From Alphaproteobacteria bacterium (GTDB lineage: Bacteria > Pseudomonadota > Alphaproteobacteria > SP197): DNA of 64,000 nt. Each line of letters begins with the position of its first letter. The first letter of the stretch is position 1. The DNA lies in NCBI GenBank assembly GCA_964291415.2, contig OZ219917.1, forward strand, positions 1,056,001 to 1,120,000, read 5' to 3'. Position numbers and translations under genes: made by a program. A model generated the notes under the pieces. It did no database searches. It saw only the letters and a list, made by a program, of their open reading frames with translations, and was not told the DNA's origin. Positions 7,269 to 24,884 of this stretch are shown piece after piece.

Positions 7269-7305
7269 CGGCGGCGGCCCACCGCGAATCGCCGGGCGAA
7301 CACAT

Positions 7306-7400
7306 GGAGGGGGATCGGTTCCGGTGGACCGCCCGGTCTTCAAAACCGGTGAGGGGCGCAAGGCGTGCCTGGTGGGTTCGACTCCCGCCCCCTTCCGCCA
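7306..7400 (+). tRNA. selC: tRNA-Sec (anticodon UCA)
   Basis: 95 nt; 8-bp acceptor stem GGAGGGGG/CCCCTTCC, 6-bp D stem with CGGT loop, CT-TCA-AA anticodon loop, long variable arm, 5-bp T stem with TTCGACT loop, GCCA end. Confidence 0.97.
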
Positions 7401-7412
7401 TCGCGGGGACTC

Positions 7413-9602
7413 ATGGACATCGTTCTGATCGGCGGCGGCCATGCCCATGTCGAGGTTTTGCGCAGTGCCCTCATGACACCCGTGGCCGGCGTGCGCCTCA
7501 CCCTGGTCACGCGGGATGTCGCGACGCCCTATTCTGGAATGATCCCCGGATATCTCGCGGGTCACTACACCTGGGCCGAGGCACATATCGATCTTGTGCC
7601 CCTTGCCGCGCGGGCCGGAACCCGGCTGATCCATGCTGCCGCGACCGGCCTTGATCCCGAAGCGCGCCAGGTGCACTTCGAGGACCGTCCGCCCCTTGGT
7701 TTCGATGTCGTCTCGCTCGACATCGGTTCCCGCCCGGCGAGCGATGGAATCGCCGGAGCAGGGACGCATGGTCTGCCGGTCAAGCCGGTCGACCGCTTTC
7801 TCGAACGCTGGACGGACGTGGAGGCGGCGGCATGTGCGGCCACAGGGCCCTACCGGGTGACGATGGTCGGTGGTGGTGCCGCCGGAGTCGAAGTCACCCT
7901 GGCCCTCCATCGCCGACTCACCAACCACATGGTCGAGGCCGGTTGCGATCCGGCATCGCTCGTCTTCAGGGTCGTGACCGCGGATGCGGCCTTGCTGACA
8001 GATCACGCAGCCCGCACCGGCAGACGGCTTGGCCGGGTCCTCGCCGAGGCCGGAATCGGCGTTTGTCTGAATGCGCCTGTCGTCGCGCTTGAGGATGGAG
8101 AAGTCCGTCTGGCCGACGGCTCCGTTCTGGAAAGTGATGTCACTGTCCTCGCCACCGGGGCCGCGGCGCCGGAGTGGATTCGCCGGACCGGACTAGCCGT
8201 CGACGGGAATGGGTTCGTCGCCGTTGACGGTTGCCTGCGCTCGACATCCCATGCCTGCGTGTTCGCCGTTGGTGACATCGCCAGCTTTGCACCCAGGGAG
8301 CTGCCCAAGAACGGCGTCCACGCCGTGCGCCAGGGACCGGTTCTGGACAGCACACTCAGGCGCCTTGCGGAGGGTCGGGAACCGGTTCCCTACAGACCCC
8401 AGCAACGCACGCTGGCGATTGTCTCGACCGGCAGCGGGCACGCGGTGGCTTCACGAGGACCAGTCGCGATGTCCGGGCGCTGGGCGTGGTGGTGGAAGGA
8501 TCGCATCGACCGGCGGTGGATGCGCCGCTATCAGGACTTGCCGGGGATGGCTGAAACCCATCCCATGCGGTGCGGCGGGTGCGGCGCCAAGGTGCCGTCG
8601 CGGGTTCTGGAACGGGCTTTGGCCCGACTTGATGTTCCTGCCATGCCCGGTGTCCTGGTTGGTCTCGACGCAGCCGACGACGCGGCCGTTCTCGCACCGG
8701 TCCCGGGCAGTGTGATGGTGCAGACGGTCGATCAGTTCCCGGCGTTCGTGGACGATCCCTGGCTGTTTGGCCGCATTGCGGCCGTCCACGCGCTTTCCGA
8801 TATCCACGCCATGGGAGCCGAACCTCATGCCGCCATGGCGCTCGTTGGTCTGGTGCCCGGCGATGCCGATGCCATGGAAGACGACCTGGTGCACATGCTC
8901 GAGGGGATCCTTTCGATCCTTCGCGATGAAGGCTGCGCCCTGGTGGGCGGCCATACCGGCGAGTCGGACCGTGCCGCCCTGGGTCTGGCCGTCACCGGCC
9001 ATGCCGACGAATCGGCACTCATTCACCTGTCGGGCCTCGAAGAGGGCGACGTTCTTCTGCTGACCAGGCCGCTTGGCACCGGGGCGCTGCTGGCTGCCAA
9101 CATGCGTGGCGAGGCCGAGGGTGCATGGATCGGAACAATTCTTGACGCAATGCAGCGCAGCAACGGACCGGCTGCACGCCTTCTCGCCAACGCCGGCGCC
9201 CGGTCGATGACGGACGTAACCGGCTTCGGGCTTGCCGGACACCTGTGGGATATGGCGCGGGCCTCAGGGGTCACCATCGAGATTGGCAGGGTCCCTGCCT
9301 ATGCCGGGGCGGTGGAACTCCTCGCGCGGGGCCGGACCAGCACGCTTCATCCCGGCAACGTTGCAGCGTTGAAAGGCATCCTCGATGCCGATGCGGCCGA
9401 CCCGATTCTCTTCGATCCGCAGACAGCCGGAGGGCTTGTCGCCGGCCTTCCGGAGGACAGGGCGGACGAGGCGATCGCCCTCCTGCACGAAGCTGGCGAG
9501 ACCGGCGCCGCGCTGATCGGACGGGTGACCGGTTCGGGGAGCGCCGCCCTCTCGCTCGAGCCGCGTGCTCAGCCGTCCACGTATTCGGGCACGAACATGT
9601 AG
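7413..9602 (+). CDS. selD: Selenide, water dikinase SelD fused to an N-terminal FAD/NAD pyridine nucleotide-disulfide oxidoreductase domain
   Basis: N-half MDIVLIGGGHAH, YSGMIPG, VGGGAAGVE, FAVGD; C-half MRCGGCGAKV (Cys form), DDAAV, ALSDIHAMG, GGHT, TDVTGFGLAGHL, DPQTAGGL. Confidence 0.95.
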   Translation: MDIVLIGGGHAHVEVLRSALMTPVAGVRLTLVTRDVATPYSGMIPGYLAGHYTWAEAHIDLVPLAARAGTRLIHAAATGLDPEARQVHFEDRPPLGFDVVSLDIGSRPASDGIAGAGTHGLPVKPVDRFLERWTDVEAAACAATGPYRVTMVGGGAAGVEVTLALHRRLTNHMVEAGCDPASLVFRVVTADAALLTDHAARTGRRLGRVLAEAGIGVCLNAPVVALEDGEVRLADGSVLESDVTVLATGAAAPEWIRRTGLAVDGNGFVAVDGCLRSTSHACVFAVGDIASFAPRELPKNGVHAVRQGPVLDSTLRRLAEGREPVPYRPQQRTLAIVSTGSGHAVASRGPVAMSGRWAWWWKDRIDRRWMRRYQDLPGMAETHPMRCGGCGAKVPSRVLERALARLDVPAMPGVLVGLDAADDAAVLAPVPGSVMVQTVDQFPAFVDDPWLFGRIAAVHALSDIHAMGAEPHAAMALVGLVPGDADAMEDDLVHMLEGILSILRDEGCALVGGHTGESDRAALGLAVTGHADESALIHLSGLEEGDVLLLTRPLGTGALLAANMRGEAEGAWIGTILDAMQRSNGPAARLLANAGARSMTDVTGFGLAGHLWDMARASGVTIEIGRVPAYAGAVELLARGRTSTLHPGNVAALKGILDADAADPILFDPQTAGGLVAGLPEDRADEAIALLHEAGETGAALIGRVTGSGSAALSLEPRAQPSTYSGTNM

Positions 9603-10726
9603 GATCCGGCGTCGCGAAGCGCCGCATCGTCGCTGGCGAGACACTTCGAGCGAACATCCTGAATGATCCGGCCGGCCGCTGTCGCTGTCCAGAACCAGTT
9701 GGTCACGGCTCCGGTATCCGTGGCGCCGGTGTGCCCTGCGGCAGACTCCATGTAGTAGGTCTTCAGGTCTTCCGAAGCGAGGCGGAGCTGGTCGATTTCG
9801 GCGCCCTCAGCCATGGTGTCGCCATTGAGCCAGGCGGTGAGCAGCCGGGCGGCACCGGGGGCGTCCATGCCCGATCCACCCAGTGTGGTGCGGCCGCGCC
9901 GTGCGACGCTTGTTTCGTACCACGCGCGCAGGCCGTCAACTTCCTCGATGAGCGGGCCGTCGCGGTTGACGACAAGGCGGTCGAGAACATCCCGGTCCTC
10001 CCCCTCAGGCGGCGCCTCGTCGGTGAAGTCCTCCAGCACGGGTCCGGCGGGCCTGGCGAAGAGATCGAAGAGAGCCATGAGGACGCGCCGCTGGAACGAC
10101 GCATTGCCTGCAGCACCGAAGGGCCTGCCCAGCGGAAACGGCACCCAGAGGGAGCGTGGCGGCCTCACCTCTTCGGCCTGGCGTCGCACCAGTGCGATGA
10201 GTGCCGTCGCCAGTCCCTCGTCCTCCATGAACTTTGCCAGTCCGCTCACGGCGCACGTGCAAAGGGGTCATACGGGGGCGAGGATGACCGTGTTGACTCC
10301 CTCCGCCTTCATCCTGCCGGCAAGGTGGCGCGCCGAACTTTCCATGGCGAGGGGATCGGTCGCTCCCATGAACGAGTAATGGGTCTTCGCCACCGATCCA
10401 ATCGCGCCTTCATCGGCGATCTCCAGGAGCCTTTGCAACGGGAAGACGACATTGATGTCTTCCTGAAAGCCGGTCCGGTCGTGTGAGACCGAAACATGGT
10501 CCTGAACGACATCTGCCGCGCCCTCGACAGGAATACTCCGGTAGTCCGCCGAGCCTTCGCTGAACGCCTGGTCGCCGCGCAGCCGCAGTCCGGCCGAGGA
10601 TACGAGCGACACCCGTCGCATGGATGGTGGCGCCGGCTCCGTCCATGGTGAGCCTGGCACATCGGGACTGGTGAACTCAGTCAGAAACTCCGCCATGTCC
10701 GGGTTGAGGTCAGTTATGCGTACCAA
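9569..10726 (-). CDS. GrdB/PrdB-family (glycine/sarcosine/betaine/D-proline reductase selenoprotein B-like) selenoprotein, Sec at UGA 10268-10270, 385 aa
   Basis: Track ORFs 10268..10726 and 9569..10249 are in the same frame: VILAPV-TGA-PLCTCAVSGLA gives UxxC. Family motifs D.NVVFPL.RL, HYSFMG and RPPR...PFPLG.P lie on both sides of the stop. TTG start with GAGGAGG RBS; selC and selD are adjacent. Confidence 0.88.
10232..10264 (-). promoter_or_regulatory. Candidate bacterial SECIS hairpin just downstream of the Sec UGA
   Basis: mRNA after UGA: CCC CUUUGC ACGUGCG CC GUGAGC GG ACUG GCAAAG. Outer stem CUUUGC/GCAAAG; apical loop starting GU about 18 nt from the UGA. Confidence 0.6.
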
Positions 10727-10737
10727 GGCGCGCCTCC

Positions 10738-12189
10738 TCAGGGTCGGTCAACATCGTCAACGGTATCCAGCATCATCGGAGCAAGAGCATCGACCGTGCG
10801 TCCCGCCCAGTCAATCTGTGGCACCGCGGCCATCATCGCCTTCTGTCCTGCTTCCAGGCGATCCAGTTCGGCCGCAAGGTCGACTGTCACGATCTTTCCA
10901 TCGGCCACCACACGTTCTCCGTCCACCCAGACATCCCTGACCGCACGTTCGGCGGCGACGACGATGAGCGTACGCAAGGGTTCGCGGACCGGCCGCATCG
11001 ACGGGTGGGCGAGATCGATCGCCACCAGGTCCGCCTTGGCCCCGACGCTGATCCTCCCCAGGTCATCGCGCCCGAGGGCTGCGGCGCCGCCGACCGTGGC
11101 GGCATGAAAGATGTCGCTGTAGTCGAGATCGGCGACGCTGCCGGCCACGTGGCGGGCAGCGGCGGCGGCCGTGCGCATCTCGTCCAGCATGTTGTGCGGA
11201 TAGGTGTCCGTACCCATCCCCAGGGCCACCCCGTGCCGCAAGTAGCCGCCGATGGTGTTGAGAGCGATGCCGCGGCGCGAAAACACGGTCGGACAGTGGG
11301 CCACGGCGGCGCCGCTGTCGCGCATCAGATCGAGATCCCGGCGTGTGGTCCAGTGCAGCCACGGGTGATGGTCGAGGAAGATGCAATGGGCGATCGTGCT
11401 TCGTTCATCGAGCACCCCGATGTCGTGCATCCACTGGATCGGCGATGCGCCGTGGCGCCGTTGCATCTCGTGGAATTCGGTGACGGATTGCGCGGCGTGT
11501 ATTGTCCACGGGAGGTTGCGTTCCCTGGCGGCAGCGTGGCTGTCGCGCAGGGTTTCCTCGGTACAGGTGTCGACCTGGGAGGGGGCAACCATGCCCGAAA
11601 GCCGGCCCGAGGGATGCTGGCGCGCCAGCTCGATGACGGTCAGCGCCCGTTCCAGGCCCCGGGCGCCGGCACCGGGTGTCCAGTCGTAGTCAAGGCTGTG
11701 TCCGTCCGCCGTCGACCAGCGCGCATCGCGGAACATCGGGGCGGCGACTCCGCGGATGCCGCTCGCCGCAAGGGCGTCGAGCCAGCCGTCGTAGGGCATG
11801 GAGAGATCGACCGCCGTGGTGACACCCGACAGCAGCAATTCGGCGAGCGCCACCTTGAGACAGGCTTCACGCCCTTCTTCGTCCGTGGGATTGAAGACCG
11901 GCAGGTGTTCGTAGAGCGAGCTGTGCCAGAAGCCCGGGGAATGTGTCTCGTCGGTGATTCCCTTGCGCATCGCCTCGCTCTGGGCATGGGTGTGGATGTT
12001 GACGAGGCCGGGCATGACGAGGAGTCCCGAGCCGTCGATGCGTCGCCCTGCCGGAGCGTCCCGGCCCTTGCCCACATGGGTGATGCTGCCGTTCGCGAAG
12101 GCAAGGTCGGCATGCCGCAAATAGACATGCTTCGTCCCGTCCCAGGCCACGAGCCAGGCAATATCGTGGATGAGAGTTGTGTCATTCAT
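10738..12189 (-). CDS. Metal-dependent amidohydrolase (chlorohydrolase/deaminase family)
   Basis: MPGLVNIHTH, IHAAQS, IAHC, GMGTD, G.KADLV; its stop overlaps the RBS of the selenoprotein gene. Confidence 0.88.
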   Translation of the reverse strand: MNDTTLIHDIAWLVAWDGTKHVYLRHADLAFANGSITHVGKGRDAPAGRRIDGSGLLVMPGLVNIHTHAQSEAMRKGITDETHSPGFWHSSLYEHLPVFNPTDEEGREACLKVALAELLLSGVTTAVDLSMPYDGWLDALAASGIRGVAAPMFRDARWSTADGHSLDYDWTPGAGARGLERALTVIELARQHPSGRLSGMVAPSQVDTCTEETLRDSHAAARERNLPWTIHAAQSVTEFHEMQRRHGASPIQWMHDIGVLDERSTIAHCIFLDHHPWLHWTTRRDLDLMRDSGAAVAHCPTVFSRRGIALNTIGGYLRHGVALGMGTDTYPHNMLDEMRTAAAAARHVAGSVADLDYSDIFHAATVGGAAALGRDDLGRISVGAKADLVAIDLAHPSMRPVREPLRTLIVVAAERAVRDVWVDGERVVADGKIVTVDLAAELDRLEAGQKAMMAAVPQIDWAGRTVDALAPMMLDTVDDVDRP

Positions 12190-12241
12190 GGTTCTGAGCC
12201 GCCATCATAGAATAACCGTGACACGGGAACACCCGGCAGGC

Positions 12242-13300
12242 ATGCGCACACTTCACGAAGACGACATCACGCCGCTGGCCACCGGCGCCTGGATCCTGGG
12301 TTCCGGCGGTGGAGGCAGTCCCTATGACGGTTGGCTCAATCTCACTGCACTCTACCGTGATGGTGTCGCCATCGATCTCGTCGATCCCGGAGAGCTCGGC
12401 GATGACGATCTCGTTGCCGTGGTCTCGACCATGGGAGCGCCGCTGGCCGGCCAGGAGCGTCTCGCCGACCCCGAGCTCTCGGCGGCGCCCGTGCGAGCGC
12501 TCGAGGACTGGCTGGGACGCCGCTTCCAGGCGGTCATGGCCGTCGAGATCGGCGGCGGCAACGGGATCGAGCCTTTTCTGGTCGGCGCCACCCTGGACCT
12601 GCCGGTGGTCGACGCCGACGCCATGGGCCGGGCCTTCCCGGAAGCCCAGATGACCAGCTTCGCCATTCACGATCTTGCCATGTTTCCCCTGGCGCTGGGC
12701 GATGTGCGTGACAACACCGTCATCGTCGCCCGTGCGGCAAGCTGGCAGTGGATGGAACGACTGTCACGGGCCGTCACCACGGCGCTTGGCTCGACCGCGC
12801 CGACCGCCAAGGCGCCGCGCAGCGGCCGCGAGGTCAAGGCTTTCGCCATTCACGGTTCCGTGAGCCGGGCGATCAGGATCGGCCGCGCCGTTCACAATGC
12901 GCAGGAACAACTCGCCGACCCCGTGGCGGCCGTGATCGACAGCGAGGGTGGGCGGTTGCTCTTCACTGGCAAGGTGAACGATGTCAGGCGACGCACCAGC
13001 GAGGGGTTCTTGAGGGGCCGCGCCGTGCTGGAAGGAACGGGAGCTTTCGAGGTCGACTTTCAGAACGAGTACCTGACCGGCCGTCACGACGGTGTGCCGG
13101 TGGTGATGACGCCCGACATCATCTGTCTCATGGATGTCGAATCGGGTGAGGCCGTGGGCACCGAGACCCTGCGCTATGGTCAGAGAATCGCCGTCGTTGC
13201 CCTTCCCGTTCCGGCCATCCTGACCACGCGGCGCGGGCTTGAACTCGTCGGCCCCCGCGCCTTCGGCTATGACTTCGACTACAGGAGTGCCTTCGCCTGA
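12242..13300 (+). CDS. DUF917 family protein (S-methyl thiohydantoin desulfurase-like), copy 1
   Basis: LGSGGGGSP, MGAP, EIGGGN, DADAMGRAFPE, FQNE, PDII, TETLRYGQ, VGPRAFGY. Confidence 0.85.
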   Translation: MRTLHEDDITPLATGAWILGSGGGGSPYDGWLNLTALYRDGVAIDLVDPGELGDDDLVAVVSTMGAPLAGQERLADPELSAAPVRALEDWLGRRFQAVMAVEIGGGNGIEPFLVGATLDLPVVDADAMGRAFPEAQMTSFAIHDLAMFPLALGDVRDNTVIVARAASWQWMERLSRAVTTALGSTAPTAKAPRSGREVKAFAIHGSVSRAIRIGRAVHNAQEQLADPVAAVIDSEGGRLLFTGKVNDVRRRTSEGFLRGRAVLEGTGAFEVDFQNEYLTGRHDGVPVVMTPDIICLMDVESGEAVGTETLRYGQRIAVVALPVPAILTTRRGLELVGPRAFGYDFDYRSAFA

Positions 13301-13355
13301 TGCCCGCCCTTCACCCCAACAGAACCTCCCGGGCGGCCGTAGCGGGTAGATGGCG

Positions 13356-13440
13356 GGTCGGCATGCCGGAGAATGAAATGCTTCGTCCCGTCCCTGGCAA
13401 CGGGCCGGTCAACATCGTTGATGACCGTTGAGTCATTGTT
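13356..13440 (-). pseudogene. Decayed copy of the first ~28 codons of the amidohydrolase gene
   Basis: Reads NNDSTVINDVDRPVARDGTKHFILRHAD versus MNDTTLIHDIAWLVAWDGTKHVYLRHAD; start codon mutated. Confidence 0.85.
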
Positions 13441-13491
13441 GGTTCAGGCCGCCATCTTGGAGCAACCGCGACAAGGGAACACCCGGCAGAG

Positions 13492-14550
13492 ATGCGCACA
13501 CTTCATGAAGACGACATTACGCCGCTGGCTACCGGCGCCTGGATCCTGGGCTCCGGTGGTGGAGGCAGTCCCTATGACGGCTGGCTCAATCTCCAGGCGC
13601 TCTATCGTGACGGTGTCACCATCAATCTCGTCGATCCCGGAGAGCTCGGCGACGACGATCTCGTTGCCGTGGTCGCGACCATGGGAGCGCCGCTTGCCGG
13701 CCAGGAGCGTCTCGCCGACCCCGAACTCTCGGCGGTGCCGGTGCGGTCGCTCGAGGACTGGCTGGGACGCCGCTTCCAGGCGGTCATGGCCGTCGAGATC
13801 GGCGGCGGCAACGGAATCGAACCCTTTCTGGTCGGCGCTGCCCTGGACCTGCCGGTGGTCGATGCCGACACCATGGGCCGCGCGTTTCCGGAAGCCCAGA
13901 TGACGAGCTTCGCCATCCACGATCTTGCCGTGTTTCCCATGGCGCTGGGCGACGTGCGTGACAACACCGTCATCGTCGCCCGTGCGGCGAGCTGGCAGTG
14001 GATGGAGCGACTGTCACGTGTGGTCACCACGGCGCTGGGTTCGACCGCGCCGACAGCCGAGGCGCCGCGCAGTGGCAGCGAGGTGAAGGCCTTTGCCATT
14101 CACGGTTCCGTGAGCCGGGCGATCAGGATCGGCCGCGCAGTTCATAATGCGCAGGAACAACTCGCCGATCCCGTGGCGGCCGTGATCGACAGCGAGGGGG
14201 GACGGTGGCTCTTCACCGGCAAGGTGAACGACGTCAGGCGGCGCACCAGCGAGGGGTTCCTGAGAGGCCGCGCCGTGCTGGAGGGAGCGGGCACCTTCGA
14301 GGTCGACTTCCAGAACGAGTACCTGATTGGCCGTCACGACGGTGTGCCGGTGGTGATGACGCCCGACATCATCTGTCTCATGGATGTCGAATCGGGTGAG
14401 GCCGTAGGCACCGAGACCCTGCGCTATGGTCAGAGAATCGCCGTCGTCGCCCTTCCCGTTCCGGCCATCCTGACCACGCGGCGCGGACTTGAACTCGTCG
14501 GCCCCCGCGCCTTCGGCTACGACTTCGACTACAGAAGTGCCTTTGCGTGA
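13492..14550 (+). CDS. DUF917 family protein, copy 2
   Basis: 352 aa with the same motifs as copy 1 and scattered substitutions (e.g. DADTMGR, TAEAPR). Confidence 0.85.
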   Translation: MRTLHEDDITPLATGAWILGSGGGGSPYDGWLNLQALYRDGVTINLVDPGELGDDDLVAVVATMGAPLAGQERLADPELSAVPVRSLEDWLGRRFQAVMAVEIGGGNGIEPFLVGAALDLPVVDADTMGRAFPEAQMTSFAIHDLAVFPMALGDVRDNTVIVARAASWQWMERLSRVVTTALGSTAPTAEAPRSGSEVKAFAIHGSVSRAIRIGRAVHNAQEQLADPVAAVIDSEGGRWLFTGKVNDVRRRTSEGFLRGRAVLEGAGTFEVDFQNEYLIGRHDGVPVVMTPDIICLMDVESGEAVGTETLRYGQRIAVVALPVPAILTTRRGLELVGPRAFGYDFDYRSAFA

Positions 14551-14709
14551 CCCCAACAGCACCTCCCGGTCGGCCGCGACGGGTTGATGGCGGGTTGGTA
14601 CCGTAGGGTGACACTCAGCCACCAGCCGCGGCCGTTTCGTGCAGCCTGAGCGAGTCTGCCAAGTGAAGGAGTCGGGGCGTCGCGCGTCCGCGATGCACCG
14701 GGGCCGGGT

Positions 14710-15747
14710 TCAGTTCGTCTCGACCTTGCCGCCGGCCTCGCGCCAGGCGGCGATGCCGCCGATCATGTGGCAGACATTGCCGACGCCACTCTGGCGCGAG
14801 CTCTCCACCGCCATCGCCGAGCGCTCGCCGAAAGCGCAGTAGTAGACCAGCCGGTGGCCGGGACGGCCGGCGAGCGCGCGCAGCGCTCCGCCAGGCTCGA
14901 TCATCTCCGCGAGACGATCGTAGGGCGCATGCACCGAGCCGGGGATGGTGCCCTCGCGGGCCCGCTCGCCGGCCTCGCGCAGGTCGACGAGGATGTCGTC
15001 GGGCCGGTGGCCGTGCATCACTTCGCGTGCGCTCATCGCGCACTCAGGATGTGCCTCGTCCTCCTGGCCGCGGCCAACGCTCAGGTTCGCGGGCACGGCC
15101 ACGTCCATCATCTTGGGGTCGGCGAGATTCAGGCCGTCCATCAGCACCGCGTACTCTGCGGGCGAGGCGACCTGGAGGCGGGGATTGAAGCGCCTTTCCT
15201 CGCCGATGGTGCTCACCGTGTCGCCCTTGTAGTCGTGGCCGGGGTAGACCAGGGTCTCGTCGGGCAGGGTCAGCAACTTTCCGAAGAGCGAGTCGTACTG
15301 CTGCAGCGCGTCGCCGTTCTGGAAGTCGGTGCGGCCTGTGCCCCGGATCAGCAACGTGTCGCCGGTGAAGACGCGGTCCTCCATCACAAAGCTGTAGGAC
15401 TCCGCGGTGTGCCCCGGCGTGTAGAGCGCGCTCAGGCTCACGCCCTCGATCTCGATCAGGTCGCCGTCGCCGACGCGCATCGAGACCACGTCCACCGGCG
15501 CCTCCCGGCCCATCACGGTGACGCAGCGGGTGCGGTCGCGCAGTTCCGCCATGCCGCTGATGTGGTCGGCGTGGACATGGGTATCGAGCACCTTGGCAAG
15601 CGTGAGGTCGAGTTCGTCCAGCAGCGCGAGGTAGCGCTCCACCCGCTCCTCGACCGGGTCGATGATGAGCGCCTCGCCGCCGGCGCGTCCGCCCAGCAGA
15701 TAGGTGTAGGTGCCCGAATCCTGATGGTAGAGCTGGCGAAAGATCAT
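14710..15747 (-). CDS. Persulfide dioxygenase (ETHE1-like MBL fold) fused to rhodanese
   Basis: MIFRQLY..SGTYTY, DTHVHADH, TPGHT, GTGRTDFQ.G, YPGHDY; C-terminal VDLRE...GTIPG...YCAFGERS. Confidence 0.9.
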   Translation of the reverse strand: MIFRQLYHQDSGTYTYLLGGRAGGEALIIDPVEERVERYLALLDELDLTLAKVLDTHVHADHISGMAELRDRTRCVTVMGREAPVDVVSMRVGDGDLIEIEGVSLSALYTPGHTAESYSFVMEDRVFTGDTLLIRGTGRTDFQNGDALQQYDSLFGKLLTLPDETLVYPGHDYKGDTVSTIGEERRFNPRLQVASPAEYAVLMDGLNLADPKMMDVAVPANLSVGRGQEDEAHPECAMSAREVMHGHRPDDILVDLREAGERAREGTIPGSVHAPYDRLAEMIEPGGALRALAGRPGHRLVYYCAFGERSAMAVESSRQSGVGNVCHMIGGIAAWREAGGKVETN

Positions 15748-15948
15748 CGTCGGTCTCCGCCCTCTTGGTTTTCCGGACGCCATTGTAGAGCCTTGCGGCC
15801 GCGTCCGGCCAGCGTCATCCGGAGTTTCATCGCGCTGTTCCGGTCTCGCTGGTCCTTCGGCTACGATGGCGTTGGCAGGGGCCACCTGGCCTCCATCGCA
15901 ACGGCGCCCCGCGGGCGGTCGGAGCCCGTGGGTTGCGGGGGGCGGAAC

Positions 15949-17055
15949 ATGAAGATCAGGCGCATCAGCGTCTACCGGATCGATCTGCCACTGAAGGAAT
16001 CGTACGGCCTCTCGGGCGGGCGACTTGTGACCGAACGCCTTGACAGCACGTTTGTCAGAATTGACACCGACTGCGGTCTCGAAGGGTGGGGCGAGGGGTG
16101 TCCCTGGGGCCATACATACCTTCCGGCCCACGGCCAGGGGCTGAGGGCCTCGCTCGAGGTGCTGGCACCCTCTCTGCTGGGACGGGACCCGCGCGCTGTC
16201 GAAACCGTCAACCGGGCGATGGACGCCTGTCTCCCCGGTCACCTCTACGCCAAGTCGCCCATCGACATGGCCTGCTGGGATCTTGTAGGCAAGGCGACGG
16301 GTGAGCCGCTGTGGCGACTCTTCGGCGCAGAGGAGCCCGCTGCGGTCGAGATCAACTCATCGATTCCCACCGGCACGCCAGCGGCCATGGTGGCGGGAAT
16401 CGAACGGGCCCGCAGGGAAGGATACCGTACCCACTCGGCCAAGCTGGGCGGACATGATGCGGCAGCCGACATCGAGCGGATCGAAGCCATCGAAGATGCC
16501 CGGGTGGCAGGGGAACAGATCACCTGGGACATCAACCGGGCGTGGACGCCTGCGATTGCTTTCGAGGTGCTGAACACCGTCCCGTCCATGGCATGGGTGG
16601 AGCAGCCCTGCGAGACCCTCGAGGAGTGCGCCATGGTGGCACGCAAGGTCCGCCAGCCGGTGTTGCTGGACGAATGCCTGCATGACGTCAGGGATCATCT
16701 CCTGGCCTGGCGTGCCGGCGCCTTCGCCGGCATCAAGGTCAAGCCCAACCGCCTCGGCGGCCTGACGCGGGCGCGGCGCATCCGCGATCTCGCCATGGAC
16801 GTTGGCTGGAGGATGCACATCGAGGATGTTGGCGGCAGCGCGCTCGCCGACACCGCTGCGGTTCACCTCGCCGCCTCCACGCCACAGCCGTACCGCATGG
16901 CCAGCTGGCCGGCCCATGCCCACCTGGCTCGTGATCCCGTGCCCGGCCAGGGGGTACGCAATCGCGGCGGGTTCCTGGCGCCCACGGGGTGTCCCGGAAC
17001 CGGAGTGGTTCCCGATGAGGAGCACACGGGACCGCCGGTCGCTGTCTACGGTTGA
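15949..17055 (+). CDS. Mandelate racemase/enolase superfamily enzyme (HpbD proline-betaine epimerase / cis-3-hydroxyproline dehydratase-like)
   Basis: LSGGRL, GWGEGCPWGHTYLPAH, AKSPIDMACWD, HSAK, WDINR, EQPC, LDE, IED. Confidence 0.82.
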   Translation: MKIRRISVYRIDLPLKESYGLSGGRLVTERLDSTFVRIDTDCGLEGWGEGCPWGHTYLPAHGQGLRASLEVLAPSLLGRDPRAVETVNRAMDACLPGHLYAKSPIDMACWDLVGKATGEPLWRLFGAEEPAAVEINSSIPTGTPAAMVAGIERARREGYRTHSAKLGGHDAAADIERIEAIEDARVAGEQITWDINRAWTPAIAFEVLNTVPSMAWVEQPCETLEECAMVARKVRQPVLLDECLHDVRDHLLAWRAGAFAGIKVKPNRLGGLTRARRIRDLAMDVGWRMHIEDVGGSALADTAAVHLAASTPQPYRMASWPAHAHLARDPVPGQGVRNRGGFLAPTGCPGTGVVPDEEHTGPPVAVYG

Positions 17056-17099
17056 GGTCTGAATCAGCGGCACCGAACCGCAGGCCGCCGTTGCACCGC

Positions 17100-17127
17100 T
17101 TGACGGGTAGTCGCTGGGGCACACAAT
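17100..17127 (+). promoter_or_regulatory. Putative sigma70 promoter of the RiPP maturase operon
   Basis: TTGACG-N16-CACAAT just upstream of 17146. Confidence 0.45.
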
Positions 17128-17145
17128 GACGGGGTACTCCTTCGA

Positions 17146-19518
17146 ATGAGGGCGCCAGTCATGGCAACAATCGGGACCGAACCGGGAGGCGTGGGCGTTG
17201 CCGAGACGAACGTGATTCAACCGACGTTCTGGAATGCTCTTCCCCATTTTCTTCCCATCACCATCTTCCCCCTCATCATCGTGGCGGCGTTGCTGGGAGG
17301 CTGGTGGATCCTTGCCCCCTTCGTTTTCTTCGGGCTCGCCGGCCCGCTCGACCTTGCCTTCGGCATGGACGGGCGGAACATGGATCCGGCGAAGACACCC
17401 GAGCGGCGCCTTTTCTGGCACAATCTCCCGGTCTGGCTGTGGGCCGTTCTGTGGCCTGCAACCTTTGTCTTCACGGCCTGGCAGATTCTTGTTTCCGGCC
17501 ACCTGACCGACTTGGAAGGCGCGTTGATGGTGTTCGTCCTGGCCATGGAGGCCCAGGCGGTCTTCATCGTCGGCCACGAGCTCATCCATCGCCGACGGCA
17601 ATGGGAACGCCGCCTCGGCGAGTTCCTGCTCGCTTCGGCTTCCTATCCGCAGTACGCCACGGAACATGTCTACATTCACCATGCCTTTGTCGGAACACCG
17701 CTGGATGTGGGATCGGCTCCAAGGGGTGAAAGCCTGTGGCACTACTTCCCTCGCGAGGTTGCCAACAACCTTCTCGGTTCGTGGCGTGTGGCGCGCGAGC
17801 GTCTGGCGCGCAAGGGACTGCCGGTCTGGCACCGCAGCAACCCGTTCTGGCGCTATGGCCTGGCGACGGCGTTCTGGTATGCCGTCGTCTTCGCGTTGGG
17901 CGGACCATGGGCGATTCCGGTCTACATGGCGCTCTGTCTCGGCGTTGTCTTCTCGATGAAAGTGTCCAACTACATCCAGCACTATGGGTTGCGGCGCGTG
18001 CGTGTGGCCGGAGGGCGTTTCGAGAAGATCCTGCCCCGGCATTCGTGGAGTGTGGACTACAGGTTCAGCAACTGGATGTTCTTCAACATGCAGCGTCATG
18101 CGGATCATCATGCCGTCTGGGGGCGCCGCTATCCCCTCCTGCAGTTCCGTGGCGCCGACGAGTCGCCGCAGCTGCCCGGGAGCTACGGCAAGATGTTCGG
18201 GCTGGCCGTGCGACCGAAACGCTGGTTCGAGACGATGGATCCGCTGGTCGACGAGTGGCGGGCGCGGTTCTATCCGCACATCGACGACTGGAGTGCCTAC
18301 GACAGCCCGGTGTCCGCCACGCGACCGGAGTCCTTTGACGCAATCGTTGAAATCTACGCCGCGGCGCCGCGGCTTGCCGGCTGGATAGAACGTCAGCCGG
18401 ATCTTCTCGACGAGTTGCGCAGCAAGGAGTTCACCGATCTTGATCTCCCGAAGGGATTCGGCCCCGACGCCGGGGCCGAGACAATCGCCCGGCAGGGCCT
18501 GACACGCCTCTACTGGACCCACGAGTTCGGGGTCGCCGACATGAAGGAGGAAATTGCCGAAACACCGGTTCAGGATGCCGGAGACCTCGTGGAACTCGTC
18601 CGCGGCTGGTCGAACCGCAAGGCCTTCCAGGTCGGCATGCACACGTTGCGGGGCAACCTCACGCCGGTGGAGGCAGGCGGGGCACTGGCCAGCATCGCCG
18701 AAGCGGCGATCGCCGCGATTCTCCAGGCTGTCGTGATCGACACGACCGAGCGCACCGGCGCGCCTTTCGATGGCGGCATCGCCGCGCTGGTTCAGGGCGA
18801 CCTTGCCACCCGGGAGGTGGCGCCGGACACCCCGATGGAGGTCATGTTCGTCCGCGACGGGGATTCCAGGGCCAGTCACGAAACGCTCTGTCGGGAGTTC
18901 CGCGACGCTCTTGGGGAACTCGCGCAGGACAGCCTGCTGTTCGCACCCGCAGGGGCCGGCGACGCGGGGAAGGACGTGTGGTCCCTCGAGGAGTTTGTCG
19001 CGTGCCACAGTGAGCCGGGTGAGGACCTTGCGCGCCTCGCCCGTGCGCGGTGCGTGTTCACCGGCGGCGAAACGGACCTTGGCGAGCGAATCGCGGCAGC
19101 AAGACGGGAGCTTCACGTTCCGAAGGGCGCGGGCACCGATGATCCTGCCGACATCGAAGAGGCGGCGCTCATCCTGCAGCTGACCCTCGCCATGGAGGAA
19201 CCCGCGCCTGCGGCCGGTTCGGTCTTCCGGCGTGCCAGGGAAAAGGGACTGCTTGCGGCCGCGGCCGCCGATGATCTGTGTGAAGCCGCCGCTCTCTGGC
19301 GCAACCTGAATGGAATCCAGCGCCTGGTGATTGAGGGGGGTGTTGTGGACGACGCCGTGCCGGAAAGGGTCAGGGCCGTCATCGCGCGCTCCTGCGGCAT
19401 GGCGGGATACGATGCCCTTGAAGCCGCCATGGCCGACGTGACGTCAAGGGCAGGTCATGCCGTCGCGTCGCTCCCTTCTCTGGCCGATGGCGAAGCGCCC
19501 GCGGACGAGTCCGGCTGA
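17146..19518 (+). CDS. AlkB-like membrane diiron monooxygenase/desaturase fused to a degenerate GlnE adenylyltransferase-like domain
   Basis: His boxes HELIH, EHVYIHH, NYIQHYG, MQRHADHH. The C-half follows GlnE motifs (APRLA..I...PDLLD, GDLATREV..., ARAR, DIE...ILQL). Exact start uncertain (17146/17161). Confidence 0.8.
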   Translation: MRAPVMATIGTEPGGVGVAETNVIQPTFWNALPHFLPITIFPLIIVAALLGGWWILAPFVFFGLAGPLDLAFGMDGRNMDPAKTPERRLFWHNLPVWLWAVLWPATFVFTAWQILVSGHLTDLEGALMVFVLAMEAQAVFIVGHELIHRRRQWERRLGEFLLASASYPQYATEHVYIHHAFVGTPLDVGSAPRGESLWHYFPREVANNLLGSWRVARERLARKGLPVWHRSNPFWRYGLATAFWYAVVFALGGPWAIPVYMALCLGVVFSMKVSNYIQHYGLRRVRVAGGRFEKILPRHSWSVDYRFSNWMFFNMQRHADHHAVWGRRYPLLQFRGADESPQLPGSYGKMFGLAVRPKRWFETMDPLVDEWRARFYPHIDDWSAYDSPVSATRPESFDAIVEIYAAAPRLAGWIERQPDLLDELRSKEFTDLDLPKGFGPDAGAETIARQGLTRLYWTHEFGVADMKEEIAETPVQDAGDLVELVRGWSNRKAFQVGMHTLRGNLTPVEAGGALASIAEAAIAAILQAVVIDTTERTGAPFDGGIAALVQGDLATREVAPDTPMEVMFVRDGDSRASHETLCREFRDALGELAQDSLLFAPAGAGDAGKDVWSLEEFVACHSEPGEDLARLARARCVFTGGETDLGERIAAARRELHVPKGAGTDDPADIEEAALILQLTLAMEEPAPAAGSVFRRAREKGLLAAAAADDLCEAAALWRNLNGIQRLVIEGGVVDDAVPERVRAVIARSCGMAGYDALEAAMADVTSRAGHAVASLPSLADGEAPADESG

Positions 19519-21024: not shown

Positions 21025-23346
21025 GTGGACGACAGCACCGTGACCGCAGGCACGACCCCACAGGGGATCCTGACCAGGTGGACTCCCGGGGATCGGGGTT
21101 CCGTCAGGACACCCTTGCTCACTCCGCACCTTGAGTTCCGCGCGATTGGTGACGATCGGGCGCTGCTGGTCTCCGAATCCTTCAACACCCTGCTGCATGG
21201 CAGACTGTGCTGCGATCTGATGCCTCTTCTCGACGGACGGCGCGAGGAGGATGGCATCATCGCGGCTCTCGACGGGATCCACGACGCCCGCGACGTTCGT
21301 TCCACCATCTCCTCGCTTTCCGAAAAGGGCTACGTTGTTTCAGGCGAACATGCGATGGACCGGCAGCGGGCGGCCTGGTGGACGTCGCTTGGTGCATCCC
21401 CACGCTGGGTCGAGGAACAGCTGGCGCTCTCGCGGGTTGTGGTCGAGGGAGATGAGGGAGAACTGGCCGCCTGCCTTGCCGTGTGCGGTGCCGTTTCGGG
21501 AGCCGAGGGGAAGGCCAGTCTCAGGATTGTTGTCTGCAACGATTATCTGGAACCGCGCCTCGAGGAGGTGAACCGGAGACAGCGCGAGGCGGACGAGCCG
21601 TGGATGCTTGCGCGGCCCCATGGCGTGCAGGCGCTCTTCGGTCCCGTCTTCCGGCGCCAGGGGCCCTGCTGGGAATGTCTGGCCAGCCGCATGCGCAGCC
21701 ACCAGGAAGTCCACGCGTTCCTTCGCAATGTGGCCGGAGAGGACGCCGCCTTCAGACCATTTGCCTCGGAAGGCGTGGTGCGGGACGGATTGTTGAGGCT
21801 GATTGCCGCAGAGATCGTCAAGTGGCTGGTCCTTGGCGAGACGGCTGCCGTCCATGATGAAGTGATCGCCGTCGATACCGGCGACTTTGCTGTTTCACGG
21901 CATCGGGTCATGCGCCGGCCGCAGTGCCGCGCCTGTGGAGACGATGGGTTGCACAGATCCGACCGTGCGCCGGTACCGGTGTGCCTGAACGCAAGTCCAA
22001 AGGCTGTTCGGACCAGTGGCGGTGCACGCTGCGTGGCGCCGGAAGCGACCCTGGCGACCTACCGGCACCTGGTCAGTCCGGTCAGTGGTGTCGTGACCTG
22101 GCTGTCGCGTACCACCGATGAAAGCGACCCGTGGCTTCATGTCGACTGGGCCGGAAGCAACCTGGGCATGAGGAGCCGCAGCCTGGCCTCCCTCAGGCGC
22201 AGTCTTCGCAGCAAGAGCGCCGGCAAGGGGAGCACGCCGGTGCAATCCAGGGTCTCTGCCCTTTGCGAGGCGATCGAGCGCCATAGCGGAACCCGGTCAG
22301 GTGACGAGATCCGCATTCGCAGGACATTCAACGGGTTCGACGGGAACGAAAGCGCGATTCACCCCAACGACGTGCAGTTGTTCAGCGACAACCAGCTCGA
22401 CAACGCAAAAGACATCAACGAGAAGGGTCACCCCTACAACATCGTGCCGGCCCGCTTCGACCCTGACGCGGCGGTCGACTGGACTCCGGTGTGGTCGCTG
22501 ACCCAGCGGCGACATCGCTATCTGCCGACGTCGATGCTTTACAGCATGGCGGCCGAGGAGCGTGGTCCGGCGGACCTGATCGCCGATTCCAACGGTTGCG
22601 CTGCCGGCAACACCCTGGAAGAGGCCATCCTGCAAGGCTTCTATGAACTCGTCGAACGCGATGCCTTCGCCATCTGGTGGTACAACCGGCTCAACATGCC
22701 GGCGGTCGATCCCTGCGCCTTCGATGACCCGTACCTTCTCGATGCAACGGCCGTCTACGCCCGCCACGGGAGGGAAGTGTGGATGCTCGACATCACGTCC
22801 GATTTCGGTATCCCAACCTTCGTGGCACTCTCTCGCAGAGTCGACGCCGCCAGCGAGGACATCATCTACGGCGCCGGGACCCATGCCGTTCCGCGACTGG
22901 CCGCCCTGCGGGCGGTGTGCGAACTGAACCAGTGTCTGACGTGGCTGCCGCGGCCCGGAAGCCGCGACGGCCGGCCGACGATCGATGACCCGTTTGTGCT
23001 GTCATGGTGGAGAACCGCGCGCCTTGCCGGATGCCCGTGGCTGGCGCCGGCAACCGAGGGGACGGCTGGCAGGGCGTCGCAGCCTTCCATCGCAGACTCG
23101 GCGGATACGCGCGACGATGTGGAAAGCTGCCGCGCGCTTGTGGAAGCCAGGGGCATGGAGTTCCTGGTGCTTGACCAGACCCGCCCCGACATCGGAATGC
23201 CGGTTGTCCGTGTCATCGTGCCGGGGATGCGCCACTTCTGGGAACGCTTTGCCCCGGGCCGTCTCTACGAGGTGCCTGTCAGCCTGGGATACCGGGCGCA
23301 TCCGCCTGGTGAATCCGACCTCAACACCGCGCCTGTCATTGCCTGA
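21025..23346 (+). CDS. srpC: Fused TOMM cyclodehydratase (RRE + E1/ocin-ThiF + YcaO)
   Basis: GP.F....PCWECL, RPQCRACG, SAGKG, SALCEAIER, SNGCAAGNTLEEA, ELVERDA, RVIVPG. The gene symbol is assigned by analogy to the srp clusters. Confidence 0.9.
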   Translation: MDDSTVTAGTTPQGILTRWTPGDRGSVRTPLLTPHLEFRAIGDDRALLVSESFNTLLHGRLCCDLMPLLDGRREEDGIIAALDGIHDARDVRSTISSLSEKGYVVSGEHAMDRQRAAWWTSLGASPRWVEEQLALSRVVVEGDEGELAACLAVCGAVSGAEGKASLRIVVCNDYLEPRLEEVNRRQREADEPWMLARPHGVQALFGPVFRRQGPCWECLASRMRSHQEVHAFLRNVAGEDAAFRPFASEGVVRDGLLRLIAAEIVKWLVLGETAAVHDEVIAVDTGDFAVSRHRVMRRPQCRACGDDGLHRSDRAPVPVCLNASPKAVRTSGGARCVAPEATLATYRHLVSPVSGVVTWLSRTTDESDPWLHVDWAGSNLGMRSRSLASLRRSLRSKSAGKGSTPVQSRVSALCEAIERHSGTRSGDEIRIRRTFNGFDGNESAIHPNDVQLFSDNQLDNAKDINEKGHPYNIVPARFDPDAAVDWTPVWSLTQRRHRYLPTSMLYSMAAEERGPADLIADSNGCAAGNTLEEAILQGFYELVERDAFAIWWYNRLNMPAVDPCAFDDPYLLDATAVYARHGREVWMLDITSDFGIPTFVALSRRVDAASEDIIYGAGTHAVPRLAALRAVCELNQCLTWLPRPGSRDGRPTIDDPFVLSWWRTARLAGCPWLAPATEGTAGRASQPSIADSADTRDDVESCRALVEARGMEFLVLDQTRPDIGMPVVRVIVPGMRHFWERFAPGRLYEVPVSLGYRAHPPGESDLNTAPVIA

Positions 23347-23355
23347 GGGAGTGTC

Positions 23356-24534
23356 ATGGACACAGACAAGGCCATCGCACTGACCCAGGACCTTCTGGCC
23401 CAGGAGGGCGGGACCATGGGCGACCTGCTCGGTCACTTCCGGAACAGGGTGTCGCCGACCCTCATCGATGACGCTGAATGGGATCGTGTCCTGGCATGCG
23501 CCCGAACCCTTCCCATCACGATGGGCGCGCTTCCCTTCGGTTTTGAACTGCCGCTGCATGTGCCGGAGCCACAGGCGGATCTAGGCGTATCCATGGCGAG
23601 TGGAACCAGATCGGCGGAGTTCTTCCGGGAGCGCGCCCGGGTTCACAGGACCGATGATACCCTCGGCACACTCATGCGACTCTTCGATCACATGGAAGGC
23701 GGGGTCTCACCCTTGCGCGACATTGTCGGCCGCAAGGTGATGCTGGAGTACGACATCGGCTCGGCTGAAGGCGGTACGCCTTCGCGTCCGGCCTTGTTCC
23801 TGAGGCCCGGTGAACGACCGATCGTCGGCGCGGGCGGCCAGGTCGATGATGTCCTGCTGGTGGGCGATGCCCTTGTTTCGAGTCACGGCTGGACGATGGG
23901 TGCAGGCCAGCGCAAGGCACTCTCGCAGGCCTACCTGGCGCAGCCGGAGGATACGCGCATGGACTCGTTCGGGATGTTCCCGTCCCGCTCACGCGCCGTC
24001 CGGCTGGCCATCATGGGGTTCGCAAACCGCCGGCAGATCGAAACCTACCTGGACAAGGCGGGGTGGCCAGGCGAAGCCGCGGCCGTCGATGCGGTCATGG
24101 CACGTTTCATGGAACGCGTGAACATCGTCAGGACCGGGGTGAACATTGACGTGACGGAAGAGGGGCTGGGCCCCGCCCTCGGTCTGACGCCGATCGTCCG
24201 GCAGAGGTACACCAAGGATTCACGGTACTGGCTCGATGGCCTGACCGACTGGGCGCCGTTCCTGGACGCCCTGAGTCACGAGGACATTGTCGTGCCCGGC
24301 AAGCTGGAAGCGCTGGCAGGCTGGGTCTCGAAACCGGAACACCTGTTCGCACGGTCCGGACGCTACGTGCTGCTGCGAGGCATCCACCATGTCAAGCTGG
24401 TCATTTCGGCGAACCGGCTCTGCAAGGCCAAGGCCTATGTCTTCATGGTGCTTGTCGGGCGCCGTGTCACTCTGACGCCGAACACAACGGCCCCCGATCC
24501 GGATCGAACCGGGGCAATCCTCGCAGGTTCTTGA
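23356..24534 (+). CDS. Conserved RiPP-associated protein, probable ABBA-like aromatic prenyltransferase
   Basis: FGFE.PL...ADLG, LEYD, SR...VRL, W..FLD.L, RGIHHVKL, KAYV; translationally close to YcaO (9-nt gap). The function is inferred. Confidence 0.45.
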   Translation: MDTDKAIALTQDLLAQEGGTMGDLLGHFRNRVSPTLIDDAEWDRVLACARTLPITMGALPFGFELPLHVPEPQADLGVSMASGTRSAEFFRERARVHRTDDTLGTLMRLFDHMEGGVSPLRDIVGRKVMLEYDIGSAEGGTPSRPALFLRPGERPIVGAGGQVDDVLLVGDALVSSHGWTMGAGQRKALSQAYLAQPEDTRMDSFGMFPSRSRAVRLAIMGFANRRQIETYLDKAGWPGEAAAVDAVMARFMERVNIVRTGVNIDVTEEGLGPALGLTPIVRQRYTKDSRYWLDGLTDWAPFLDALSHEDIVVPGKLEALAGWVSKPEHLFARSGRYVLLRGIHHVKLVISANRLCKAKAYVFMVLVGRRVTLTPNTTAPDPDRTGAILAGS

Positions 24535-24570
24535 GGGCGCGCCGCCGTCACGGCGCGCCGACAACGGCAG

Positions 24571-24822
24571 TTACCAGCAGCAGCACAGACCGGCCGAGAC
24601 CGCTTCGAGCTGCTCTTCGGTAATGTTCGGGTCGGGCGGCAGTGCAACATGCACCGTCTGCATGTCACTCTGATGAACCACGACGTTCATCGAGTCTGGA
24701 ATCGTGATTCCAAGTTCGTTGCAGATGGTCCCTTTCGGATCTGCAAGAAGCTCTTGCCTGAAACCGGCGTCGACAGCGGATTTGTCGACAATCTGCTGCA
24801 ACATCTCATTGCCGTTTCTCAT
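24571..24822 (-). CDS. srpE: Proteusin (NHLP) precursor peptide, 83 aa, core LCCCW after the AG cleavage motif
   Basis: MRNGNEMLQQIVDKSAVDAGFRQELLADPK...HVALPP...EEQLEAVSAG|LCCCW; GGAGAG RBS upstream of the ATG at 24822. Confidence 0.93.
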   Translation of the reverse strand: MRNGNEMLQQIVDKSAVDAGFRQELLADPKGTICNELGITIPDSMNVVVHQSDMQTVHVALPPDPNITEEQLEAVSAGLCCCW

Positions 24823-24884
24823 GGCCACTCTCCACTGATCTACCTTAATTGTGCCGGCGAGTATGCCGGAATCCTCATTGAAAA

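Follow-up and report, generated by a model that had tools for sequence, protein, structure and literature searches.

The question raised by this locus is whether the TGA codon at positions 10268-10270 of a 64,000-nucleotide stretch from an Alphaproteobacteria bacterium (contig OZ219917.1, positions 1,056,001 to 1,120,000; the whole stretch is hereafter called the window) ends a short gene or encodes selenocysteine (Sec, U) inside a longer one, and what kind of enzyme the longer gene would specify. Two open reading frames (ORFs) on the minus strand, 10268..10726 (152 aa) and 9569..10249 (226 aa), lie in the same frame, and the sole break between them is this TGA. Reading it as U gives ...NTVILAPV-U-PLCTCAVSGLAKF..., a protein of 385 residues with its end at TGA 9569-9571, in which the residues around the UGA are ...ILAPV-U-PLCTCAVSGLAK.... 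Our analysis makes it highly probable that 9569-10726 is a real selenocysteine gene, encoding one 385-residue enzyme of the PrdB/GrdB type with a UxxC site and decoded by means of a selenocysteine insertion sequence (SECIS). The features of the gene itself are the following:

9569..10726, minus strand: whole predicted selenoprotein gene, with a TTG start at 10726-10724, the putative Sec codon mid-gene and a TGA stop at 9569-9571; 385 residues
10268..10270, minus strand: in-frame UGA, predicted Sec residue 153; TGA in 85/85 aligned copies, Cys in full-length homologues
10259..10261, minus strand: codon of Cys156, the putative resolving Cys of UxxC, invariant in both protein alignments
10253-10255, minus strand: codon of Cys158, a clade-specific third Cys at the U+5 residue
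10733..10737, minus strand: GGAGG ribosome-binding site as read from the sequence, 6 nucleotides (nt) before the TTG and directly after the amidohydrolase stop 10738-10740

The position of the start codon is common to the relatives, which have TTG, GTG or ATG there. The G+C content of the window is ~65%. Long spurious ORFs on other frames are frequent at such a content and were hence disregarded.

A protein search with the read-through product retrieved 372 relatives, and the 120 best were examined. Full-length proteins of 340-436 residues with PF07355 accounted for 65 of them, 54 were pieces of 214-267 residues covering the post-UGA part alone, nameless or annotated as 'hypothetical', and one was an N-terminal piece ending in ...FCPV. 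Standard annotation thus splits the gene, as the sequence-only reading of this DNA had anticipated, and since gene calls are cut at the UGA in this way, the selenoproteomes of such genomes are under-counted. The alignment with Cys homologues that the same reading had proposed as a check placed U153 on an invariant Cys (PVCPNCTR) in 14/14 full-length homologues, and Cys156 was invariant as well.

At the DNA level, with one genome per species, 569 stretches were found to encode a relative, and the best 80 (referred to by L numbers) were kept; they span Alpha-, Beta-, Gammaproteobacteria and Desulfobacterota. The aligned codon was TGA in 80/80 loci and in 4 extra paralogous copies, which gives 85/85 with the window, and it was never TAA or TAG. 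The terminal stops of 83 of the related genes served as a control and were mixed (47 TGA, 20 TAG, 16 TAA). The proposal that the two ORFs are joined by UGA recoding through APV-U-PLCTC therefore holds for the single TGA of one continuous frame, and none of the 84 related copies showed a non-UGA stop there. Exactly one U was present per read-through ORF of the relatives, and these ORFs measured 385-429 aa, with the exception of L040 (367 aa), whose 5' end lies at a contig edge; the ORF of L033 runs off its contig.

Codon differences from the five closest relatives (L001-L005) were counted for each half of the gene. The N half showed 28-41 synonymous and 6-20 non-synonymous differences, and the C half 19-51 synonymous and 21-47 non-synonymous ones. 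Compared with what a sequence free of constraint would give, synonymous differences are in excess in both halves, which are thus under purifying selection; the post-UGA part is accordingly translated and constrained, less tightly than the N half.

Two putative Sec paralogues are present in some genomes. They form a direct tandem in L014, L017 and L022 (UGA at 10460 and about 11689), where a UGA and a hairpin are present in each copy, and L034 contains a second paralogue, with UGAs at 2173 and 10460.

The RNA just past the UGA contains a candidate SECIS with two nested parts:

10240..10256, minus strand: SECIS core, a 17-nt upper hairpin at nt 15-31 counted from the U of UGA, with an 11-nt spacer and the loop CGUGA
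10232..10264, minus strand: full SECIS-like element, with a lower stem CUUUGC/GCAAAG (7-12 with 34-39) joined to the upper hairpin through a 2x2 internal loop

An alignment from UGA-9 to UGA+60 was gapless and comprised 85 rows, 83 of them distinct. In it, nt 15-20 pair with nt 26-31 around a loop C-G-U-G-R, in which the G and U are invariant; these two bases also open a conserved Val codon. The three inner pairs (columns 27:37, 28:36 and 29:35) were standard in 83/83 distinct rows and pair 15:31 (columns 24:40) was present in 76/83. Pair 16:30 (columns 25:39) was C-G in 51 rows, U-A in 27, A-U in 1 and unpaired in 4 of the 83, and pair 17:29 was unpaired in 38 rows, the window included (G/G). 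Sliding the 3' partners by 1-3 columns reduced the paired cells from 70% to 31-51%. The stem of the window consists of G15-C31, U16-A30, the G17/G29 mismatch, C18-G28, G19-C27 and C20-G26, so that a hairpin lies just past the UGA with a G in its small apical loop, as in a SECIS.

At pair 16:30, the C-G/U-A switch links the first base of a codon, where CGC (Arg) becomes UGC (Cys), with a third position that is synonymous. The raw counts (27 U-A vs 51 C-G) overstate covariation, few events being behind them. Given this weak tree-based covariation, we relied on the contrast at synonymous sites in its place. Third-base entropy was 0.46 bits at Thr157 (ACG) and 0.45 bits at Ala159 (GCC), both stem codons, and 1.11-2.0 bits at the other 43 of the 45 conserved four-fold-degenerate codons of the gene; the loop codon Val160 had 1.17 bits. 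Nowhere else in the gene is the constraint on synonymous sites as strong as at these two codons. RNAalifold recovered only 4 pairs from the 85-row alignment, and a search of Rfam at E <= 10 returned tRNA-Sec and noise, with no match to a SECIS family. The case for the SECIS is carried by comparative evidence, and folding energy was not used for it.

The sequence-only reading had placed a stem-loop 3 nt past the UGA. The lower stem does begin there, and at minimum energy (-14.2 kcal/mol) the UGA plus 39 nt folds into a two-tier hairpin. This fold is, however, not significant (see below), and only the window's clade keeps the lower stem, whose pairs are 8-58% unpaired across all alignment rows. 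For Escherichia coli, PMC8659212 describes the SECIS as a stem-loop of 17 nt that occupies nt 15-31, is separated from the UGA by 11 nt and carries G23 and U24 in its loop. The element of the window resembles that of E. coli fdhF, as described there, in the placement at nt 15-31, the 11-nt spacer, the apical-loop G-U and, within the window's clade, the longer lower stem beneath; it differs in that the loop G-U is at 22-23 instead of 23-24 and that the upper stem has a G/G mismatch in place of the bulged U. A SECIS at the E. coli distance may permit heterologous expression.

Two genes for Sec synthesis adjoin the selenoprotein gene, in accordance with the earlier remark that selC and selD are next door:

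7305..7400, plus strand: selC, tRNA-Sec with anticodon UCA (ARAGORN; Rfam RF01852, 75.8 bits, gathering score 47)
7365..9602 (ORF as listed), plus strand: selD with an N-terminal pyridine-nucleotide-disulfide oxidoreductase domain (Pyr_redox_2 + AIRS + AIRS_C)

The longest ORF for the selD fusion begins inside the tRNA-Sec gene (7365-7400), and its true start is therefore further downstream. It scored 420.7 bits with TIGR03169 (cut-off 310) and 266.9 bits with the selD model TIGR00476 (cut-off 125), and remained below the cut-off of the 'fusion_not_SelD' model; the oxidoreductase domain that precedes SelD belongs to the TIGR03169 type. The fusion is convergent with the selenoprotein gene, and the 34-nt overlap of their 3' ends (9569-9602) is kept in L001-L007. 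The tRNA-Sec gene is found at the same place in L001-L007, L009-L011 and L027. Within 10 kb of the gene in the 80 loci, tRNA-Sec was detected in 17, selB in 9 and selA in 8. In four members of the window's clade with 51-54% identity (L009, L010, L011 and L027), the order is selenoprotein gene, selD fusion, selC, selB, selA.

These four loci carry the Sec genes as a compact island at about 11200-18100. In the window and in L001-L007, a heparinase II/III-like gene and housekeeping genes occupy the place of the selB-selA part of the island.

The location of selA in relatives that lack it beside the gene was traced through contig sizes. The SelA proteins P0308, P0344, P0293, P0302 and P0279 are encoded on contigs of 4131610, 1034793, 3853775, 4200769 and 3752649 bp, respectively, and fragments of the selenoprotein gene, P0012, P0013, P0015, P0022 and P0087, are on contigs of exactly these sizes, in the same order. 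Identity to the window protein was 83% for P0012, 73% for P0013, 66% for P0015, 58% for P0022 (contig of L007) and 50% for P0087. The matching sizes indicate that in such relatives selA is located elsewhere on the chromosome.

The predicted product has two domains:

10079..10678, minus strand: PrdB/GrdB-type alpha/beta domain, residues 17-216, with the U-P-L-C site (TIGR04483, PF07355); predicted strands and helices alternate
9572..10078, minus strand: C-terminal, mostly helical domain, residues 217-385 (169 residues), specific to the family

The GrdB/PrdB-like motifs that had been seen to continue across the UGA were recovered by profile searches. The Pfam model GRDB (PF07355) matched residues 35-150 with 34.5 bits (gathering cut-off 22, E = 1.8e-8), and positions 9-211 of the 238 of the NCBIfam PrdB model TIGR04483 aligned with residues 17-216, with 80.1 bits against a cut-off of 300. 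The broader selenoprotein-B model TIGR01918 gave 38.9 bits, below its cut-off of 65.45, and the GrdB, GrdF and GrdH models 35.6-39.8 bits against cut-offs of 602-800.

The C-terminal extension, noted beforehand as exceeding 100 aa, turned out to be the 169-residue domain, for which no Pfam or NCBIfam model match was found. It is conserved in Sec and Cys forms. Searched alone, it matched 437 representative proteins; the best 150 of these all have <=291 residues with the domain at their end, which identifies them as pieces of Sec forms from beyond the UGA; in none of these 150 was it fused to another domain. A structure model built on 61 sequences (pLDDT 90.2, pTM 0.90) shows the alpha/beta domain and then helices from residue 259 on. 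Foldseek of this model against the PDB yielded nothing at E <= 0.001 (best E = 0.013, TM-score never above 0.28), suggesting that no GRDB-family structure is in the searched PDB library. A sequence search of the PDB with the family profile returned ribosomal protein S7 only, with E of at least 0.15, which is noise, and the ESM Atlas gave no usable match for the C-terminal domain.

The extra Cys of the UxxCxC arrangement, also pointed out beforehand, is present in the window, but among 83 relatives the U+5 residue is Cys in 23, Arg in 54, Ser in 5 and Leu in 1; by this alignment, the third Cys is a trait of some clades and not of the whole family. In the window and in L001-L006 a deletion at residues about 245-255 (about 9962-9994) removes the Cys of a W-x-C-P-V motif, which is nearly invariant in the C-terminal domain of the other members, Sec and Cys forms alike.

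Comparison with the literature shows that this family has been encountered before. The Sargasso Sea selenoproteome included 42 sequences named 'Proline reductase (PrdB)', the third most abundant family (Zhang, Fomenko & Gladyshev 2005, PMC1088965), and in the selenoproteome of the Global Ocean Sampling (GOS) 235 Sec and 110 Cys sequences (pfam07355, UxxC) placed it among the top families in many surface-ocean samples (Zhang & Gladyshev 2008, PMC2398784). The '#Proline reductase' reads in supplementary file 3 of PMC2398784 share with the window family the motifs PVUPxCT, PPRALWVPF, GRPFG, CPVSF, RTTVG, DLKAFY and WFW in the same order, with 'PPRALWVPF' appearing 21 times in that file. This pattern spans both the PrdB-like domain and the C-terminal domain, the match being judged by eye, and some of the reads look, again by eye, nearly the same as the L038 and L049 translations. 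Other PF07355 subfamilies are mixed into the same list, for example reads with ...PNUPVCHQT.... The window's clade differs from the GOS set in file 3 by its third Cys (UPLCTC) and by the loss of the W-x-C-P-V cysteine. By its ordered motifs, the family is the same as the GOS and Sargasso 'Proline reductase' set.

The gene is accordingly a further member of a family catalogued since 2005-2008 as a predicted selenoprotein, and its existence is not new: the description of a 'hidden' selenoprotein is apt for its splitting in gene calls but not for the family, which the Sargasso and GOS selenoproteomes list. The passages on it in these two papers treat the family simply as proline reductase, with no mention there of the C-terminal domain, and no treatment of the family apart from PrdB was found in the open-access literature.

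The resemblance to PrdB (TIGR04483) consists of a homologous alpha/beta domain over about 200 residues and of Sec in a UxxC at the same place (U153-P-L-C156) as in the Clostridium sticklandii enzyme (Kabisch et al. 1999, cited in PMC13188914, where UxxC is listed for PrdB). PrdB, in contrast, has ~240 residues and no further domain, and it belongs to Stickland fermenters, unlike the proteobacterial hosts with oxygenase genes found here; no PrdA (or PrdC) gene was detected in the window or in the neighbourhoods of the 80 loci. The Sec region also aligns with the C-terminal part of GrdB/GrdF/GrdH (PF07355, profile 224-345 of 347), but the window protein is without the N-terminal half of GrdB, and no grdA, grdE or grdC is nearby. 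Homology is the only basis of the name 'proline reductase' for this family. The name looks wrong, since its members fall below the PrdB and GrdB cut-offs, have a C-terminal domain of their own and lack a PrdA/GrdE neighbour. One of the most abundant selenoproteins of oxic seawater would then have a reaction still to be assigned, and the interest of the locus is in its function and in the local operon.

The genes around the selenoprotein gene that are conserved in the window's clade are:

10738..12189, minus strand: amidohydrolase (chlorohydrolase/deaminase type), upstream gene in the putative operon (Amidohydro_1; NF004801, 352.5 bits, below the cut-off of 416)
12170..13300, plus strand: S-Me-THD-like (formerly DUF917) paralogue 1 (PF06032 + PF20906), kept in 10 loci of the clade
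13492..14550, plus strand: S-Me-THD-like (formerly DUF917) paralogue 2, from profile matches and clade conservation

The stop of the amidohydrolase gene abuts the GGAGG of the selenoprotein gene, which makes it very probable, from this spacing, that both genes (10738-12189 and 9569-10726) are translated as one operon. In 11 loci of the window's clade the amidohydrolase gene is the next one upstream, and the closest models of its product are the 'chlorohydrolase family' one and base deaminases. Throughout the clade, the amidohydrolase upstream, the S-Me-THD-like genes in divergent orientation and the convergent selD fusion keep their positions down to about 51% identity. Neither S-Me-THD-like protein came anywhere near the cut-offs of the thiohydantoin desulfurase models.

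For the 80 loci, all ORFs within 6.5 kb of the gene were clustered and frames overlapping it were set aside. The largest clusters were the selD fusion (14 loci), the amidohydrolase (11, window's clade only), a short-chain dehydrogenase/reductase (SDR) family (10) and selB (8). Only genes of the Sec machinery recur across clades, and no other conserved partner was found among the neighbours of these loci. In other clades the neighbourhood contains an M20 peptidase gene, directly upstream in 3 loci, or genes for an amidase in 3, a HAD hydrolase in 4, a family III CoA-transferase in 3, MmgE/PrpD in 3 or TctC in 6. The recurrence of C-N hydrolases (amidohydrolase in 11 loci, M20 peptidase and amidase in 3 each) hints weakly at a nitrogen compound as the substrate, which such an enzyme would release or consume.

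A pyruvoyl-type partner, which the sequence-only reading had recorded as absent from the window, was not found there by profile search either: no Pfam match to Gly_reductase (PrdA/GrdE) or GRDA occurred among the 61 window ORFs scanned (21 + 40). None was present among the 35 scanned representatives of the neighbour clusters, which cover the neighbourhoods of the 80 loci. The oxygenase-rich character given to the window was borne out by Rieske oxygenases, a fatty-acid desaturase, a flavin halogenase and a DAO-type oxidase, all of them O2-dependent enzymes. Judged from the gene neighbourhoods, a stand-alone Sec/Cys (UxxC) redox enzyme is supported, much as had been proposed.

Several observations weigh against this interpretation of the locus. 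On the tree, column 25 changes just 4 times and 2/3 independent pairs co-vary (sign test p = 0.5); the fold of the UGA plus 39 nt is not significant (z = -1.51, with 17/200 shuffles folding equally well), and a 71-nt piece prefers another fold, likewise not significant (z = -0.48). The upper stem of the window's hairpin contains the G/G mismatch, and hairpin conservation is partly confounded with that of the peptide C-T-[RC]-A-V-[GS]. A tblastn search with the relatives' proteins found selA and selB absent from the 64-kb window, neither of them occurs within 10 kb in L001-L007, the closest relatives, and the contigs of L002, L004, L005 and L006 are not among the 120 SelA matches listed. Outside the window's clade, the neighbours of the gene are heterogeneous. 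Part of this would suit a TGA that is an ordinary stop, leaving a split gene or pseudogene with a 152-residue product and perhaps a second product started downstream: gene callers annotate it so, the downstream fragments among the best relatives (54/120) have that form, selA and selB are missing from the window and the single-sequence fold is not significant. Such a stop is nonetheless extremely unlikely in view of a codon that is TGA in every one of the 85 copies when terminal stops are mixed, a downstream frame that is intact at the loci and under purifying selection, the Cys at the UGA position of unsplit homologues, the RNA-level constraint just past the codon, and the tRNA-Sec and selD genes adjoining it.

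If the UGA is read as Sec, the enzyme could still be the PrdB subunit of a true D-proline (or glycine, sarcosine or betaine) reductase with PrdA/GrdE encoded elsewhere in the genome. The PrdB model is the best NCBIfam match, with 203 of 238 positions aligned, 'Proline reductase PrdB' is the label used in the published selenoproteome lists cited above, and the window encodes a member of the proline racemase family (40739-41992), an oxidase of the DAO type, an enzyme resembling hydroxyproline dehydratase and a catabolic set of the betaine type. We consider this very improbable: the scores are far from the cut-offs (80.1 bits vs 300 for PrdB, 38.9 vs 65.45 for the wider selenoprotein-B model), the 169-residue domain is not in PrdB, no PrdA/GrdE/GrdA-type protein occurs in the 61 scanned window ORFs or recurs at the 80 loci, and the several O2-dependent enzymes of the window are unlike the setting of Stickland fermenters. 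A genuine selenoprotein could also have a general selenol/thiol redox role, with a disulfide, peroxide or selenium-trafficking function connected with the Sec machinery, instead of cleaving a substrate as a reductase; this is unlikely but deserves some weight. Its cross-clade neighbours are those of the Sec machinery only (selD in 19 loci, of which 14 fusion and 5 stand-alone, selB in 9, selA in 8 and tRNA-Sec in 17), metabolic neighbours vary by clade, and UxxC is a generic redox motif, most predicted selenoproteins being thiol-oxidoreductase-like according to the passage on them in PMC9312934. Clustering with Sec machinery is, however, also expected for the main Sec user of any genome, the fold family is one of substrate-specific reductase subunits, and the translational coupling to the amidohydrolase in 11 loci of the window's clade, together with the M20 peptidase or amidase near the gene in other clades, speaks against this alternative.

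For the stand-alone Sec/Cys enzyme, the course of events may be envisaged as follows. Translation would start at TTG 10726, and the 17-nt hairpin 11 nt past the UGA would recruit the SelB/Sec-tRNA(Sec) complex, with insertion of Sec at UGA 10268-10270 and continued translation to the stop at 9569; the adjacent tRNA-Sec gene and selD fusion (0-3 kb) would supply the Sec system. The Sec153 selenolate would attack a carbon or sulfur of the substrate, leading to reductive cleavage of a C-N or C-S bond, and Cys156 would resolve the adduct to a selenenylsulfide that a dithiol such as thioredoxin could re-reduce. These steps are inferred by analogy with glycine and D-proline reductases, for which selenolate attack, a selenenylsulfide and dithiol re-reduction are described in PMC13188914. 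In the window's clade, the amidohydrolase would probably make or consume the substrate of the selenoprotein. Glycine and D-proline reductases depend on a pyruvoyl subunit for holding the amine of the substrate. With no pyruvoyl partner nearby, the substrate of the present enzyme may do without this activation, or the activation may come from the C-terminal domain or from a further protein.

A more daring version, which we regard as quite unlikely in its full form, is that of a self-sufficient, oxygen-tolerant selenoenzyme that is no proline reductase and whose C-terminal domain replaces the pyruvoyl partner. Together with the amidohydrolase and the S-Me-THD-like pair, it would constitute a new aerobic pathway for opening a heterocyclic N or S compound (hydantoin-, purine- or thiohydantoin-like) and for reductive cleavage of a C-N or C-S bond at selenium. 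If true, this would explain the abundance of 'PrdB' among the selenoproteins of the oxic surface ocean. The window offers a concrete starting point, with its amidohydrolase operon, S-Me-THD-like genes and compact selC-selD island.

Several catabolic genes are found further away in the window. The segment 50279-60761 encodes three OYE + Pyr_redox_2 flavoenzymes, an OpuAC betaine-binding protein and two Rieske oxygenase alpha subunits. A proline-racemase-family gene is located at 40739-41992, and a DAO-type oxidase and a cis-3-hydroxy-L-proline-dehydratase-like enzyme are also present (34604-35908 and about 15949-17055). This set, 5-50 kb from the selenoprotein gene, suggests catabolism of betaine and proline derivatives, which are the substrate classes of GrdB and PrdB.

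An ORF of 790 codons at 17146-19518 combines a fatty-acid desaturase domain (residues 129-351) with a short GlnE-like stretch (466-577), and may be two genes or a fusion. The region 21025-32516 resembles a cluster for a bacteriocin-type or ribosomally synthesized and post-translationally modified peptide (RiPP), with the following genes:

21025-23346: YcaO gene with an N-terminal winged-helix domain, followed by an ORF of no assigned function at 23356-24534
24909-27230, minus strand: MMPL transporter
27386-29119, minus strand: ABC transporter, followed by an ORF of no assigned function at 29134-30306, minus strand
30306-32516, minus strand: ABC exporter with a C39 peptidase

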